Shown here piece by piece: positions 7,364 through 20,196 of a stretch of DNA of 64,000 nucleotides (position 1 is the first letter of the stretch; each line of letters begins with the position of its first letter). The translations under genes and the position numbers were made by a program. This DNA is from an uncultured Candidatus Saccharibacteria bacterium (GTDB lineage: Bacteria > Patescibacteriota > Minisyncoccia > Phycocordibacterales > GWA1-40-21): positions 3,834-67,833 of the forward strand of contig CAZTJK010000004.1 in NCBI GenBank assembly GCA_964613715.1. Reading direction: 5' to 3'. The notes under the pieces are model-generated. The model searched no databases and was not told the DNA's origin. It worked only from the letters and a program-made list of their open reading frames with translations.

Positions 7364-7762
7364 TCAGTGGCGAAAAAATGATACATAGCAGCGCACGGCA
7401 CCGGCAACACAGAGCCAGGTAGGCACAAGCCTCGCCACAATCGGCCACCATGCTTGCTTGACGGTCAATTGCACCGTATAGAGCGATGCGAGCATGAAGA
7501 AAGCCCATATCGGCAATGCTTTGGAATCGGCAACAATATGGCAGCCTACCGCTACCCCGATCCCGCTATTTATGCAAATGCCGATAAGCGGATCCCGGGA
7601 TGCTTCACCAGCGAAATACAGCGCGAGGATAACCGTGACCACTACAATACCCACGAGTATCGGCATGGTATCCTTCTGCGGTATCGCGGATAGGATGAAA
7701 ACAATAGTTACTACTAGACCCCAAAAAGCCCCTACTTTCGAACAAATATCAAGCTGCTGCAT
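7364..7762 (-). CDS. small polytopic membrane protein (132 aa, 4 predicted TM) inserted between rplE and rpsN
   Basis: ATG start with a strong SD (AGGGGAGGA, 6 nt upstream). Four hydrophobic helices. It has its own promoter and terminator. Confidence 0.6.
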   Translation of the reverse strand: MQQLDICSKVGAFWGLVVTIVFILSAIPQKDTMPILVGIVVVTVILALYFAGEASRDPLIGICINSGIGVAVGCHIVADSKALPIWAFFMLASLYTVQLTVKQAWWPIVARLVPTWLCVAGAVRCYVSFFRH

Positions 7763-13124: not shown

Positions 13125-13181
13125 ACTACCGCACAGTGTAGTACAAAATATCAGACAGGGCGAGAAAATCCTGTGGATAAG

Positions 13182-13778
13182 TTAGTTGAGCGTCAGATAA
13201 AAATCAAATGCGCGCGGCTTTGCGCCGTTTGGCTGCTCGACTTCGGTAAACGTGATCTTGATCGGCGTGCCCGAGTAAATGCCGACGGTCGTCGTCCAGG
13301 CATTCAGTGTCACTGAGAATTTCGAAGATGAAGCGACAGAAGCGACAAGGCCGTTATTCGTGACTGCGACTGGAACGCCAGATGGCTGCCAGCCAGCGGA
13401 TTTCGAATAGAAATAGAGCTGTGCGGTGCCGGCCCGGGAGGCGGTCTTCTCCCATAAGCAGCCGAGGGCGTCGGCTTTCGTATTGTCGATCGTACCGGAT
13501 ACGATGAGCGGGAATGTCACCCGGGCATTTGCGGCAGGGCTCGTTACTCTGAAGCCGCAGGTGCCGTAGCTTGTCGTTACTGGTTTTGGCAAAACAGTAC
13601 CACTCGTTGATTGCGATGAATGCGAAGAGGCTGGTACATTTGTCGTTGAAGAGGTATTCGTCGTGCTATTCCCCGGCATCTCTGCGCTCGGTCCCTTTGC
13701 AAGAAGCGCATAGAGCCCCCCTCCAAGGATGACAAGGATGATGATTCCGAGCGTTATTTTATTTTTCATGGATTCCAT
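13182..13778 (-). CDS. membrane-anchored secreted hypothetical protein
   Basis: N-terminal TM helix (ITLGIIILVILGGGLYALL), a Ser/Thr-rich linker, then a ~120-aa beta-rich domain. Confidence 0.5.
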   Translation of the reverse strand: MESMKNKITLGIIILVILGGGLYALLAKGPSAEMPGNSTTNTSSTTNVPASSHSSQSTSGTVLPKPVTTSYGTCGFRVTSPAANARVTFPLIVSGTIDNTKADALGCLWEKTASRAGTAQLYFYSKSAGWQPSGVPVAVTNNGLVASVASSSKFSVTLNAWTTTVGIYSGTPIKITFTEVEQPNGAKPRAFDFYLTLN

Positions 13779-14973: not shown

Positions 14974-17900
14974 TTAGTTCGTCAAGTTCTGAGAATCCGT
15001 TGGGATATTCTTGATCAACACGTCATTGTTCCAATCCGGCGAAGTCGTCGAATGTGGGCTGAATGATTCATCAGACCAGACAAACGATGCGTTTGTACCA
15101 GCACCTGATGAGGTGGTTGACTGAATATGACCAGCAGTACCCGCAGCAATCTTTGTCGTGACAGCATCGTTTGTTGCGATGGTGCCGCCGACAACCGCCT
15201 TCAACTTGTAGGTCTTAGACGTGCCTGCTGCGATTTCCTCTGGGTTCGTCGGGGTGAATGTGATCACGCCTGACGTAACACCTGACTGTGAAAGGTCGCC
15301 GGTTGATGATGCGAATGAACCTGGGATTGCCACGTCATTTACATCAGTGAGCGTCCAGCCAGTCTGAAGGGTGCTTGCCGTCGCCAAGGTGTTTGCAGAA
15401 GCCTTGGTGATGGTGAATGCAACCTTTGACCACTGAACTGCGCCAGCTGCATCAGCTGCAACCTGGATCTTGTCGAGGGTCTTCGTACCAGCCTGCAAGA
15501 GAGTATCCGTCAAAGCAACGTTCGTGATTGTCGGAACTGACTTGAAGACATACTGGACGTTACCCGTCGAACCAACGTTACCCACGAGGGTCTGAACGCC
15601 GGTTGATGACTGCTTTCTGTAACCAGTGAGCGTGTACAAGACATTGGAGCTTGACGTTGCGCCACCTGGAGTACCGATTGAAGCAAGATTCAAGTATGCA
15701 TCAACGATGACACCTGAAGTGTTGTTCGCAGGAACAACGATGTTCAAACCAGTCGTGGTTGCCATTGCATTGGTACCATCTGAGGTATCAATTGGCGTAC
15801 CAGAACCGTTGAGCACGGTTGAACCGATCTTGTAAACAACGCTTGCGACGTTACCAGCTGAAGCAAATGGGATGAAGCCCATGAGCTGATCAACCGTGTA
15901 GGTGTCGCCCGTAGCAACAAACTTGAATGAGCCAGCCTTGACTGTGTTGTTTGCAACGACAGTCGTGCTTGCTGCCAAGTTGTATGCTGCCAAGTTCAAC
16001 GAGCCTACTGTGATGCTAAACGTCTGACCAGTCGTGTAGGTTGAGCCTGAAGGGACCGTAACAGTCTGATTTGACTGTGAGGTCTGACCTGCAATCTGCA
16101 ACTTCGTGACGATCACGTCTGCACCGCCGAGTCCTGAACCGAGAGTACCATACACTGAGACGTCAATTGTCTGACCAGCAGGCAATGTGTAGTTCACCGC
16201 GTATGAGTTGTCTCCGGAAACAATCGTCGACTTGTTGCTTGAAGTCTTGTTGCCATACACAACGTAGACATCCGTGATGGATGAGGTAGCAGTCGTAGAC
16301 GCACCTGATCCGAGGAAGTTAACGGTGATGGTGTTCAAGTTCAAGTTTTCAGTCGTACCAGCAGTAAGCGTGTAGTCGCCGAGCTTGACCGCAGTCTGCG
16401 GAGCAATCATTGACTGGTTTGCATATGCCGTGTACTTCGAAAGGGACAATGAGCCCTGAGAAACCGTCAACTGGTTTGCAGTGACAGCACCCGTGCTGAT
16501 ATTGCCGCCTGACTTCGTGAGGTCTGCGTTTGCAGAACCTGCAACGAGAGAAACAGTAACCGTGTTGCCATTTACGAGCTGAGCTCCGCTTGACGTGTAG
16601 ATATCGCTGCGTACTTCAAGAGTAACTGGCGAACCTGGAACGACAGTGAAGTTCAAGCTGTTGTACTGCGTTGCGGTCGTTGAACCGATATCCGCAGTGC
16701 TGCCAACCTGGGAACCATTGACGAACAATGCGCCATTGCGCAATGGGCCAACGTTTGAGCCAGCATATGACACTTTCAAGTTTTCAATCTTGATAGGTTC
16801 ACCTGCTGCCTTGATCTGGAAGCGAGCGAGAGCAACACCTGATGCAGACAACGTAACGTTACCTGAAGGTGAATCGGTCGTCTTCGTGATGGTCAAGGTA
16901 CCAGAGTTGACTGACTGAACGCCCGTCGTGAATGGGAATGTGTAGCCCGAGTTCGTCGTGGCCAACACGTTCACGTTGAGCTGTGAGTCAACAAGGTTGA
17001 GATCTGAAGCCTGTCTCAACTGGAACGAGAAGTTCTTCGTCGAGCCGCCGATGATGTCACCAACGAGTTTGATCGTGTGTGAACCAGTCGTGAGCTTCAA
17101 TGGGTTTCCTGACAAATCAAAGGTCAAGTAATTGTTGACATCATATGCGCTGAGCGCTGAGCCAACCTGATTACCGTCGATGAAGAGGCGGAAATTACCC
17201 AAGTCTCCCGTTGCAACAGAACCAACCTGGCGAAGAGCGATTGCCTTCATCCAGACATCGTTCGTGCTCACGCTTGCCGTGCCGTACCACATGGTGTAAT
17301 CCGTCTGTGGGTCGACTGACGTCGTTGAGACTGACGATGATGAGATGATCACTGATGCGAGCGTCGCTGACGAAACCGTCTGCGAAGCTGCTGAGATCGG
17401 GTACACTGCCGTCACCGGAACATTCGACGTAACGCCCGTGAGGGAGACTACGAAGATCTGACCGTTGTAGGTCGTGCCTGACGTGATGTCAGCGCGAACG
17501 GCGATCGTCATCGATGAGCCTGCAGGAATCGTGAAGAGACCTGAAGGAGCATTGAAGGTGATCTTGCCGGTCGAAACTGATGCTGAGTCAGTCAATCTCG
17601 TCACACCGCTGTAGAGGTAGACGTTTGACAATGCTGCATCGTTTGAAACACCGCCTCTCTGGAGAGTGACGTTCGTCACAACTGCCGGAGCTGCTGAGGT
17701 GTTCGTAAACGTGTATTCAGCGAGGTCAGCGATTGACTGTCCTGCAACGACTGCGCCGGAAACCGGTGAAGTTGCTGCGAGAGATACCTTGAGGTCAGTG
17801 CCTGAAGGGACCACCGTTGAACCGGTACCTGATGACATCGAGCCTGAGCTCAACATCGAGCGGGTCTTCGGACCAACATAACCAGCTGCTGGCGTGATGC

Positions 17901-18246
17901 CGTTTGCAAGCTGATATTTGATGACGGCTGCTTTCGTCAATGAACCGAAGTAACCGGTCGCTGGCGAAATGCCGAGCATGGTCTGCAATGCGGTGACATC
18001 TGCACCCTTGCTACCGACGGTGAGGTCGACAGAGAAGGTGTGGCCTGACGTCGTCGATGAAGATGACGTGAGTCCGAGGGATGCCTTGACTGCAGCTGCT
18101 TTGCTTGCATCAACGAGACCAAGCGCAACGAGCATGTCGATCTCGTATGCCGTCTTCTGCTTGAAAAAAAAAACTGCAACCAATGAGAAGACGACGTCCA
18201 AGCCGGCGACCAGTCCAAACATTGATGAAAAACTATTTCTTTTCAT
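14974..18246 (-). CDS. giant Ser/Thr-rich cell-surface protein (1090 aa) with N-terminal PG_binding_1 domain; 5' end contains adapter-derived sequence
   Basis: After residues 1-36 it has a PG_binding_1 block (GADVTALQTML...GYFGSLTKAAVIKYQLANGITPAAGYVGPKTRSML) and about 900 aa of repeated beta-sandwich-like Ser/Thr/Gly/Val-rich segments. Codons 26-36 (FFFKQKTAYEI) are encoded by an Illumina P7 adapter plus poly-A, so the true N-terminus and start are uncertain. Confidence 0.65.
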   Translation of the reverse strand: MKRNSFSSMFGLVAGLDVVFSLVAVFFFKQKTAYEIDMLVALGLVDASKAAAVKASLGLTSSSSTTSGHTFSVDLTVGSKGADVTALQTMLGISPATGYFGSLTKAAVIKYQLANGITPAAGYVGPKTRSMLSSGSMSSGTGSTVVPSGTDLKVSLAATSPVSGAVVAGQSIADLAEYTFTNTSAAPAVVTNVTLQRGGVSNDAALSNVYLYSGVTRLTDSASVSTGKITFNAPSGLFTIPAGSSMTIAVRADITSGTTYNGQIFVVSLTGVTSNVPVTAVYPISAASQTVSSATLASVIISSSSVSTTSVDPQTDYTMWYGTASVSTNDVWMKAIALRQVGSVATGDLGNFRLFIDGNQVGSALSAYDVNNYLTFDLSGNPLKLTTGSHTIKLVGDIIGGSTKNFSFQLRQASDLNLVDSQLNVNVLATTNSGYTFPFTTGVQSVNSGTLTITKTTDSPSGNVTLSASGVALARFQIKAAGEPIKIENLKVSYAGSNVGPLRNGALFVNGSQVGSTADIGSTTATQYNSLNFTVVPGSPVTLEVRSDIYTSSGAQLVNGNTVTVSLVAGSANADLTKSGGNISTGAVTANQLTVSQGSLSLSKYTAYANQSMIAPQTAVKLGDYTLTAGTTENLNLNTITVNFLGSGASTTATSSITDVYVVYGNKTSSNKSTIVSGDNSYAVNYTLPAGQTIDVSVYGTLGSGLGGADVIVTKLQIAGQTSQSNQTVTVPSGSTYTTGQTFSITVGSLNLAAYNLAASTTVVANNTVKAGSFKFVATGDTYTVDQLMGFIPFASAGNVASVVYKIGSTVLNGSGTPIDTSDGTNAMATTTGLNIVVPANNTSGVIVDAYLNLASIGTPGGATSSSNVLYTLTGYRKQSSTGVQTLVGNVGSTGNVQYVFKSVPTITNVALTDTLLQAGTKTLDKIQVAADAAGAVQWSKVAFTITKASANTLATASTLQTGWTLTDVNDVAIPGSFASSTGDLSQSGVTSGVITFTPTNPEEIAAGTSKTYKLKAVVGGTIATNDAVTTKIAAGTAGHIQSTTSSGAGTNASFVWSDESFSPHSTTSPDWNNDVLIKNIPTDSQNLTN
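18140..18173. other. Illumina P7 adapter (ATCTCGTATGCCGTCTTCTGCTTG) followed by A10: sequencing/assembly artifact
   Basis: Exact 24-nt match to the reverse complement of the P7 flow-cell primer CAAGCAGAAGACGGCATACGAGAT on the plus strand, followed by ten A's. This is the signature of adapter read-through. Confidence 0.9.
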
Positions 18247-18957
18247 AAATGAATTCTAATTGTTACATTACGGAAACCGTATTCCTCGACTACTACTAAA
18301 TTAATAATTGGGAATCCGATCTCCTTGCTCACCAATAGACCGCGAAGCGGCAAGAGAATGGATTTCGACTAAAAACCCATTCTCTTTGAAATTGGCAAGT
18401 GCCTCGATCCCGATACCATAGAATGACCATCCATAGAGCATCGGGTACATGCGGCCGGCGTACTGCGCGCATGACACATTTCTACTATTCCCCTCTCTCA
18501 TATTCTTCACAGCATCTTGCGATGCATGCGGAGTTCGACACGAGAAAGCGGATTAGCTGACATGAACAAAACTGACTTTCTGTATTTTTTCTGCCTATTC
18601 AATTGTCAAAGTTCTCGACCACTGACAATGGGGCTTGAGCGAGCCCGACTTCAGCATTTCTGAAATGGTGGCTCTTGAGACCACCCAAACTAGACAAGCT
18701 GAAAACCTGTCTAGCCGCAAAAGATGGGAAAAGCACTTTCGCAAATGCAACTCACACCTTTGCTACCATTATATATCGTGCCTGGACCCAGGCAAAATAT
18801 ATTCTTGTGGATAACTGAATATAGGCTAAAAACCGGCCATTTTCGAGCTTTCGAAAAAGCGCAAAAACGGATCCGGGCAATAGCCTACAACTCTAGTATC
18901 TCCACATGGAGGCCATACTTACATATATTAGTATGAAAAACAAGTGCAAAAAATAAA

Positions 18958-18989
18958 CAAAAAGAGATGGGCACGCCCATCTCTTTTTG
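18958..18989 (-). terminator. intrinsic terminator after the HTH-protein gene
   Basis: CAAAAAGAGATGGG-cacg-CCCATCTCTTTTTG: a 14-bp stem with A/T-rich flanks, 50 nt after the stop at 19040. Confidence 0.6.
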
Positions 18990-19039
18990 TTTATTTTGAT
19001 CCTATTACATTCCTAAGAAGAGAAAGTAATAGATGTCCT

Positions 19040-19870
19040 TTATGCTAAGAAGTATTTTGACCAGCGGCGTTCGCCTTCTTTCTTCAATACTCCCTTAGCA
19101 ACCATGGCGATCAATTCCCTCTGAATAGTCTTGTCGCTGCAGCCTTTTATGTTCTTTGCAAAATCCTTGATGGTCAGCTTTGCACCGCCTTTGAGCATGG
19201 CAAGAATAATTTCCTGTCTGTTATTTTTGTCTTTGATCGGCTTATTTTCTTTTGATACTTTTATTTCAGACATTTCAGCAGGCAATTCAATTTTCTGATT
19301 GTCTTTAATAGGATTTTGTCCTTGAAAAAAGGCGGGCTGTTCTGCGATTACTGGCTTGATAGTGTCTGCTTTCTTGATCTGGTAAATATCGGTCGGAGCA
19401 AAATTGTAGTCTCCTTCAAAAAAGTTCTGGGGTACGGCAATCTTTGCTGAAGAATAATTCGCTGAGGATTCCAAGAGGAAATTCGTCAGTTTCTTCAACT
19501 CATCAGTGATGATCTGATGATTCATTGTTGAGATCATCTGGGCTGTCAGCGCCACATCAAAAAGCACGGTCATCTCGCAGAGCGCGTTCGACAGATTCTT
19601 CTGAAACAGGTCTTCGCCCCAGACTCTATCGGACATCGAGAGAGCAGTCGAAAGCATGTCAGTTGCGATCGCACGAAGCTTCCCTTTCATCGGTTCTGCA
19701 TCAGCCATGACGCCAGTCAAAAGATAGATGGCGGTGACCAGCCTTTCAGTCTTCTTAAAGACAAAAAGACCGTATGAATCTCCGGAAAACAATACGTCGA
19801 TATTAAGCTTGTTTTGCTGGATATTCTTGCTATCAGCACTCACCATATTGTTTTGATTTTGGCCTTCCAT
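19040..19870 (-). CDS. hypothetical protein with C-terminal winged-helix (DeoR-like) HTH, in an AT-rich island
   Basis: C-terminal QEIILAMLKGGAKLTIKDFAKNIKGCSDKTIQRELIAMVAKGVLKKEGERRWSKY resembles a DeoR-type wHTH. The N-terminal ~200 aa have no recognised domain. GC content is clearly lower than in neighbouring genes. Confidence 0.55.
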   Translation of the reverse strand: MEGQNQNNMVSADSKNIQQNKLNIDVLFSGDSYGLFVFKKTERLVTAIYLLTGVMADAEPMKGKLRAIATDMLSTALSMSDRVWGEDLFQKNLSNALCEMTVLFDVALTAQMISTMNHQIITDELKKLTNFLLESSANYSSAKIAVPQNFFEGDYNFAPTDIYQIKKADTIKPVIAEQPAFFQGQNPIKDNQKIELPAEMSEIKVSKENKPIKDKNNRQEIILAMLKGGAKLTIKDFAKNIKGCSDKTIQRELIAMVAKGVLKKEGERRWSKYFLA

Positions 19871-20177
19871 AGATGATATTGGTTATTAAACGTCTTTTAA
19901 AACTAGCTTGGAAAATATATGTCTTTTTTAATTTGTCTTTAAGAGATAAAAGGACAGTACTGTTGTATGTTTGCTATTATAATATGTCCTATAGAATTTG
20001 TAAAGTCCTTAAAAATAGTCCGAAATAGGCTGATACAATCGGCAATAGAGATGAAAAAAGAAGGTTTGAAAATAAGTATAAAAAGAGCAGCATTTTCAAG
20101 ATGGTATACAGGCATGCAAGAATGTTGTTTGATTCAAAAAGACAAAACGAATTTTGGGGAAATTATCCACAGCATTT

Positions 20178-20186
20178 GCTATAATG
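20178..20186 (+). promoter_or_regulatory. extended -10 element TGcTATAAT immediately upstream of ftsK
   Basis: A perfect TATAAT with a TGn extension ends 10 nt before the ftsK ATG at 20197, which would make the mRNA leaderless. No clear -35. Confidence 0.3.
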
Positions 20187-20196
20187 AAGCTCATCT

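Follow-up and report, generated by a model that had tools for sequence, protein, structure and literature searches.

A probable in-register overwrite by the complement of an Illumina P7 oligonucleotide in a surface-protein gene of a Paceibacteria-like bacterium

Introduction

Adapter contamination of deposited assemblies has been surveyed by a screen for the 12-mer AGATCGGAAGAG, which placed the contamination mostly at contig ends (Moeller et al. 2024, BMC Genomics 25:1033; PMC11536531), and spurious or corrupted database proteins that derive from contaminant DNA have also been described (Breitwieser et al. 2019, Genome Res 29:954; PMC6581058). This work deals with a related case in a 64-kb stretch, hereafter referred to as the window, of contig CAZTJK010000004.1 (assembly GCA_964613715.1), in which 34 nucleotides (nt) of synthetic Illumina sequence at positions 18140..18173 lie inside a gene for a surface protein of 1090 amino acids (aa).

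The window has in common with the cases of Moeller et al. (PMC11536531) that synthetic Illumina sequence is present in a deposited assembly despite read cleaning and corrupts both assembly and annotation. It differs from them in that the universal adapter is absent, the site is internal, and bases appear to have been replaced in register rather than appended. Classic TruSeq and Nextera tails share the terminal 34 nt of the window, namely, ATCTCGTATGCCGTCTTCTGCTTG and ten adenines (A10), but these tails consist of an adapter body and index and are followed by junk at a contig end, whereas the window has neither. The likeness to the cases of Breitwieser et al. (PMC6581058) is that the contaminant was translated and entered protein databases, here as P0001, and the difference is that a genuine, well-conserved protein has eleven corrupted residues instead of being wholly spurious.

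Another counterpart of the 34 nt is a reagent, not a genomic element. The immobilized P7 oligonucleotide consists of ten thymines (T10) and CAAGCAGAAGACGGCATACGAGAT, according to Table 1 of PMC13584795, which concerns a non-Illumina flow cell of conventional design and prints the P7 entry as '...TTTTTTTTTTCAA/8oxoG/CAGAAGACGGCATACGAGAT'. The segment in the window is the exact reverse complement of this oligonucleotide. Illumina's own grafted oligonucleotides also bear the T10 spacer. Because this spacer sits 5' of P7, the reverse complement of P7 (P7rc) together with A10 is the complement of the complete surface-grafted oligonucleotide, 5'-T10-CAAGCAGAAGACGGCATACGAGAT-3', and corresponds to what a read sees on reaching the very end of a cluster strand.

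Results

The 34 nt are a technical artifact that has in all probability (about 0.85) overwritten native bases of a genuine gene, both flanks of the artifact being native. The gene and the artifact are arranged as follows.

14974..18139, minus strand: native body of the gene for the ~1090-aa PG_binding_1 surface protein, residues ~37-1090 (Pfam, full-length homologues)
18140..18163, plus strand: artifact, exact reverse complement of P7, 24 nt (0 mismatches, unique, 0.00 expected)
18164..18173, plus strand: artifact, A10, complement of the T10 spacer (1-2 A at the outer end may be identical to native bases)
18174..18246, minus strand: native start codon and n and h regions of the signal peptide, residues 1-24 and the first base of codon 25 (alignment of homologue N termini)

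Identity of the segment

On the plus strand, ATCTCGTATGCCGTCTTCTGCTTG at 18140..18163 is the reverse complement of P7 (CAAGCAGAAGACGGCATACGAGAT) over 24 nt without mismatch. It is the sole match in the window at up to 3 mismatches, where shuffled sequences gave an expectation of 0.00, and simple arithmetic over the 128,000 positions of both strands (~128000/4^24) places the chance expectation of the 24-mer at ~5e-10. A10 follows directly at 18164..18173 and is the only homopolymer of at least 9 nt in the 64 kb. Within the open reading frame (ORF) 14974..18246 (minus strand, 1090 aa), the 34 nt translate as FFFKQKTAYEI, in the context ...SLVAV-FFFKQKTAYEI-DMLVALG..., and supply two of the three bases in each of the codons V25 and I36. 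The initial annotation of this stretch, made from the sequence alone, had reported the exact P7rc with A10, its translation inside this ORF, a negligible likelihood of chance occurrence, and an assembly artifact as the cause; all of this was reproduced, the sequence being a synthetic Illumina oligonucleotide that is missing from homologous loci.

The probability that the segment is genuine genomic sequence, be it a chance match or a real insertion, is practically nil. The ORF does stay open through the 34 nt, but the chance of the 24-mer is ~5e-10 and the match includes the synthetic T10 spacer. Furthermore, the adapter sequence is absent from 38 homologous loci, which show a normal A-x-A-type c-region there, and FFFKQKTAYE sits at the signal-peptidase site of the family. 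The protein P0001 of an NCBI-derived collection, encoded on a contig of 69,087 nt, is exactly that of the window, adapter peptide included, and among the 120 homologues listed it is the only one with KQKTAYEI. A literature search for this peptide retrieved no paper.

Ordinary read-through of a short insert that escaped trimming, in line with the "classic read-through signature" of the initial annotation, is very improbable. P7rc followed by poly-A does resemble the end of a read-through read; however, such a read needs AGATCGGAAGAGC and an index (TruSeq) or CTGTCTCTTATACACATCT and an index (Nextera) before P7rc, and neither was found in the window, throughout which all other adapter parts (the TruSeq or Nextera body, index, P5, and transposase end) are likewise absent. 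P7 is joined directly to native sequence, the 60 nt upstream encode conserved native protein, and read-through leaves unexplained that the native sequence restarts in register past A10. The other mark of read-through, a location at a contig end followed by junk, is missing too: the site is internal, 18 kb into the window with 45.8 kb of the window beyond it, and has no duplicated flank, N, or junk near it.

Further sources were considered and set aside. The CG to the left of P7rc also fits the old paired-end (PE) polymerase chain reaction (PCR) primer 2.0, which was deemed chance (1 in 16), as the next bases mismatch. The same 24-mer is part of the small-RNA v1.5 3' adapter, which is ligated directly to inserts; this source was rejected because it has no bearing on a metagenomic DNA library and leaves the native resumption unexplained. 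An error correction towards abundant adapter k-mers was rejected because the Hamming distance is too large at k >= 21.

The surface-protein gene

Pfam identified a PG_binding_1 domain at residues 81-132 of the 1090-aa protein, and its full-length homologues, sharing 40-65% identity, are encoded in metagenome-assembled genomes (MAGs) of Paceibacterota/Parcubacteria. The host is a Paceibacteria-like bacterium of the candidate phyla radiation (CPR). In the alignment with homologues, residues 1-25 (MKRNSFSSMFGLVAGLDVVFSLVAV) fall on the n and h regions of the signal peptides (motif GL..V.SLV), and the sequence from residue 37 on (DMLVALGLVDASKAAAVKASL) falls on the subsequent helix. Over residues 12-50 of the window protein, the alignment across the artifact is gapless in 14 of 30 homologue N termini. 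From Met1 to residue 58, the homologue L160 (MINGKVKSMIGIVVGLAMVLSLVGASTVSALTAADIDLLAAMGLIPADKVAAAKAILGG) is as long as the window protein and shares identical residues with it on either side of the artifact, and its STVSALTAADI, a c-region with an A-x-A signal-peptidase site, stands opposite FFFKQKTAYEI. With respect to Sec-type signal peptides, the window appears to possess the basic n and hydrophobic h regions, MKRNSFSSMFGLVAGLDVVFSLVA aligning with, for example, MINGKVKSMIGIVVGLAMVLSLVG of L160, but has no small-x-small (A-x-A) c-region, where homologues have ...A-S-A-L-T-A.... The native cleavage site is gone from the record, though presumably not from the organism.

A pure insertion is excluded because 34 is not a multiple of 3 and yet both flanks share one frame. 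The alignments make it very probable that ~34 nt of native sequence (strictly, 34 + 3n), encoding the c-region and the cleavage site, were overwritten in register. The borders of the overwrite are ambiguous, since V25 and I36 agree with the family consensus. The spacing varies between 13 and 20 residues in the family, and the claim of equal length depends on the ALTAxDI subclass, which is nearest to the flanks of the window. The native segment is predicted to have read roughly x-x-x-S-A-L-T-A-x-[D/E]-I, encoded by DNA containing something like GACGGCAnnCGAnATC.

These alignments bear on two warnings of the initial annotation. The residues before the artifact, which it held to be unreliable, align with the n and h regions of homologues (GL..V.SLV; 14 of 30 gapless). 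The caution against taking the N terminus for a real signal peptide was right as to the predicted cleavage region, which is destroyed, and finds no support as to the n and h regions, which are native.

P7 sequences in public genomes

A scan of GTDB representative genomes for the 34-mer gave at least 125 occurrences in at least 120 stretches, and the genome of the window is not among the matches listed. Among the 125 matches listed, the TruSeq body and index lie upstream of P7rc in 86 and the Nextera body in 31, with 2 additional degenerate Nextera cases; an adapter body and index are thus found ahead of P7 in 117-120 of them. No more than 230 nt separate 119 of the 125 from a contig end, and these run into A-rich junk; the A-run after P7rc is mostly 10-12 long. 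A direct fusion of P7 to non-adapter sequence was seen in only 4 of these matches (L051, L084, L101, and L120), and the internal, in-frame, in-register form only in L120.

L120 is contig CALDLG010000111.1 of a Lachnospiraceae MAG, in which P7rc and A11 at 7397-7431 are fused directly to native sequence. The artifact is in frame in an 1805-aa open frame for a leucine-rich repeat protein (...EFRTYFL-FFFFKQKTAYEI-YKKENEAY...). The BLASTP alignment with P0122, which is the sole spanning homologue (44% identity), is gapless across the site (EFKVYFPDDYERQVRNYAEYETKLAEY), and in-register overwriting by the P7 oligonucleotide therefore recurs. L101 (Paenibacillus sp. GM2, NZ_LN831279.1, 6047-6085), which combines adapter, junk, an N, and a flank that is duplicated, arose by the end-to-end joining of scaffolds and illustrates what a true mis-join looks like. 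Internal Nextera-type remnants are present in L068 (Streptomyces specialis) and L069 (Sanguibacter massiliensis), and L041 is another public genome with an internal artifact of P7rc and poly-A.

Gene order across the site

The initial annotation had offered a chimeric contig or a replacement of native sequence as alternatives and had called any operon inference across the site unreliable. In a chimera, unrelated contigs or distant parts of the genome would have been joined at the adapter-bearing end of a read, and the first 25 codons, like all sequence to their right, would be foreign. In its favor, adapters usually mark the ends of reads or contigs, as in the 119 of 125 listed cases within 230 nt of an end, with which PMC11536531 agrees; L101 demonstrates that real end-to-end joins occur; and the guanine-plus-cytosine (GC) content drops immediately to the right of the site (~0.54 to ~0.42). 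However, the gene order of the window equals that of L003 (a 94-kb contig) and L005 (81 kb), and the order around the site is the same in 34 metagenome loci. The shared order comprises RecA, a 117-120-aa Glucodextran_B-like gene, and FtsK, then, divergently, the gene p276, a gap of ~800-930 nt, and the surface gene, followed by an Ig-like/PG_binding gene, a PKD/LTD gene, and S19-L22-S3-L16. In tblastn comparisons with L003 and L005, identities were 55-56% for p276, 71-73% for FtsK, and 87% for RecA. The 34 further metagenome loci were recovered with a 22-mer from a conserved upstream element, and all of them that have enough flank show p276 upstream, a surface homologue 400-550 nt downstream, or both.

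Also at odds with a chimera are the homology of residues 1-25 to the signal peptides of the family with an alignment that spans the site without gaps, the position of the gene's conserved promoter and leader directly to the right, and the lack of a duplicated flank, N, or junk in the window. Neither a break in synteny nor flanks from different genes were found. Synteny and the gapless alignment together argue that the contig is not chimeric at the adapter and that its flanks are native and collinear, as judged by sequence comparison, and a chimera is regarded as extremely improbable. Of the two alternatives, replacement is thus retained on account of the gapless alignment and the kept gene order, and operon inference across the site is sound, given the same order in L003, L005, and the 34 loci.

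Upstream region

The AT-rich island 18250..20196 has a GC content of 0.42 in the gap and p276 and of 0.30 in the divergent p276/FtsK intergenic region. It contains the following features.

18247..18761, minus strand: conserved structured 5' leader of the surface gene (DNA identity, covariation)
18768..18814, minus strand: conserved promoter (10 of 12 consensus positions)
18768..18773, minus strand: -10 element TATAAT (promoter consensus)
18790..18795, minus strand: -35 element TTGCCT (promoter consensus)
18806..18814, minus strand: TTATCCACA box, exact copy
19040..19870, minus strand: p276, conserved 276-aa gene with no Pfam family (55-56% identity to syntenic ORFs of L003 and L005)

The island had been called unreliable in the initial annotation, a view contradicted by the conserved p276 gene, the promoter, and the structured leader of the surface gene found there. 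By the same comparisons, it is native and consists of the p276 gene, a terminator hairpin, and the promoter and leader of the surface gene. As a by-product, the structured leader is evidence that the regulatory region of the surface gene itself lies to the right of the adapter.

The leader is ~520 nt long in the window, where it reaches the ATG at 18246, and ~520-650 nt across its homologues (L001-L003, L005, and L127-L160). Its DNA is 81-83% identical to that of relatives, whereas the flanking proteins share merely 50-65%. RNAalifold, applied to 29 leaders, gave 64 pairs in 11 helices, with compensatory double changes in 37 pairs. In controls made by sliding the 3' partners over 1-3 columns, the share of paired cells falls to 38-45% from the observed 95.2%, and the number of double-change cells to 31-48 from 199; the observed covariation score was not attained in any of 500 shuffles. 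An invariant hairpin, UUGUCAG-UGGUCGAGAACU-UUGACAA, is located at ~18600..18630. Rfam 15 gave no match to the leader in the window or in four relatives, no terminator was predicted between the promoter and the ATG, and ARAGORN detected no tRNA or tmRNA in the island. The only Rfam matches in the island were sub-threshold hairpins at 18947..18998, which correspond to the p276 terminator hairpin. The leader looks like an undescribed structured 5' untranslated region of an S-layer-like gene in Paceibacteria-type CPR bacteria.

An exact TTATCCACA, 40-42 nt upstream of TATAAT, is present in 38 of 39 loci. Three exact copies of this DnaA-box consensus occur in the 64 kb, compared to 0.27 expected, at 18806..18814 (minus), 13172..13180 (minus), and 20163..20171 (plus), and each is intergenic and co-oriented with its downstream gene, which encodes the surface protein, an LTD/PKD protein, and FtsK, respectively. 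The motif is a candidate site for DnaA or another factor, such as the adjacent p276, which is helix-turn-helix-like. A replication origin at the divergent region of 30% GC with TTATCCACA boxes was considered and is unsupported, as the GC skew has no clear switch.

The p276 gene is always directly upstream of the leader and the surface gene, with 36.9-67% identity in about 25 loci. Its C terminus (...TIQRELIAMVAKGVLKKEGERRWSKY) resembles, by eye, a winged-helix DNA-binding motif, and p276 is a possible regulator of the surface-protein locus.

Many contigs of relatives stop 130-400 nt upstream of the conserved 22-mer, in or just past the promoter and leader, as in L001 (GCA_964562105.1), L002 (Logan ERR14373514), L127, L130, L132, L136, L147, L148, L156, and L160; the region upstream of the surface gene may be hard to assemble or strain variable. 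Between the Ig-like/PG_binding and LTD/PKD genes lies a 198-aa ORF (13182..13778, minus strand) with no Pfam match and no tblastn match in four relatives; the corresponding place in L003 is occupied by a Y1 transposase, and the locus may have a variable slot here. The GC content is 51.6% in the genome of the window and 34-41.5% in the syntenic relatives L001-L005, with which it shares 50-65% protein identity; this contrast represents a large compositional shift inside one CPR lineage of conserved gene order.

Discussion

A sequence of events at the level of the read may account for the replacement. The P7 oligonucleotide would mis-prime at a P7-like native site inside an insert, most likely on the flow-cell surface during cluster growth, and the cluster would come to hold two strand populations, one of full length and one cut short by P7 at the site. 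Their base calls in Read 1 would be identical as far as this site, after which the dominant short population would yield P7rc and A10 for 34 cycles and exhaust its template; the base calls would then revert to the full-length strands, by then 34 nt further along the native sequence. Reads of this kind, carrying no AGATCGGAAGAGC, would escape ordinary trimming, and the assembler would take that branch of the graph. Such a mechanism would account for the exact 34-nt complement, the absence of body and index, the in-register resumption, the kept frame, and the escape from the trimmer. This chain of events is given nearly an even chance.

The priming step can be compared with the sequence of the family. 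In 15 relatives with [LF]T[AST][ASG][DE][IV], the in-register site and the final 15 nt of P7 agree at 9-11 positions, whereas among background 15-mers of the same loci the frequency of at least 10 matches is 4.4e-4 and that of at least 11 matches is 6.3e-5. The family consensus is GACAGCAGGCGATATC, compared to GACGGCATACGAGATC in P7, and the adapter-encoded T-A-Y-E-I overlies T-A-x-[D/E]-[I/V] of the family. The GC content of the window genome is 0.52, as opposed to 0.34-0.41 in relatives, and native codons richer in GC (such as ACG for Thr) may have been closer still to P7. As for the later steps, degenerate adapter-like sequence follows the A-run in the contig-end cases L015, L038, and L116, which suggests that, once the template has ended, base calls come from strands in the minority. 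It is tentatively proposed, at somewhat under even odds, that a little-documented, sequence-specific Illumina error mode exists in which P7-like sites are mis-primed, giving in-frame FFFKQKTAYEI patches in genuine genes, as in the window and L120.

The main rival to this mixed-cluster mechanism, though a less likely one, is a patch introduced by software: a read of native sequence, P7rc, and A10 would have bridged a short coverage gap through a gap closer, a scaffolder, or curation, with length and frame kept by luck. Gap fillers are known for introducing sequence of poor quality. To join P7 directly to native sequence, mis-priming in PCR would suffice, the frame would be kept by chance in 1 of 3 cases, and, with a family spacing of 13-20 residues, several lengths of fill would pass. 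What speaks against a patch is that there are two independent in-register cases, of which L120 is in a plain contig of a metagenome assembler; that the fill is exactly the complement of the 34-nt oligonucleotide without trailing junk, whereas contig-end cases run into A-rich junk; and that Ns are absent and the length from Met1 is the same as in L160.

Several further points weigh against an in-register overwrite or against the mechanism proposed for it. P0002 and P0003, which have the highest overall identity, carry 4-6 extra residues in the segment, and the closest homologue of the window protein is only 65% identical. A search of metagenome contigs for the two flanks separated by N28-40, aimed at recovering the native 34 nt, gave 0 matches. 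The similarity to the 3' end of P7 is seen in relatives and not in the lost sequence of the window, and the single homologue of L120 (44% identity) matches P7 at 6 of 15 positions, which is not significant. No paper on the mixed-cluster mechanism or on in-register adapter overwriting was found, and the read-level mechanism is inferred from assembled sequence alone.

The overwrite has practical consequences. The record contains an error of 34 nt and 11-12 wrong residues, and predictions of the signal peptide and its cleavage site for P0001 are corrupted. P7rc and A10 without an adapter body, internal and in register, are missed by screens based on AGATCGGAAGAG, and under the thresholds of VecScreen an internal match of 24 nt is probably just a weak hit. 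Such artifacts would be detected by screens that also look for ATCTCGTATGCCGTCTTCTGCTTGAAAAAAAAAA or the peptide KQKTAYEI.

The 34-nt feature itself has no biological significance. The gene, its start, the promoter, the leader, and the operon structure remain trustworthy, and nothing needs to be discarded as chimeric. The most interesting element of the neighborhood is the leader of the surface-protein gene.

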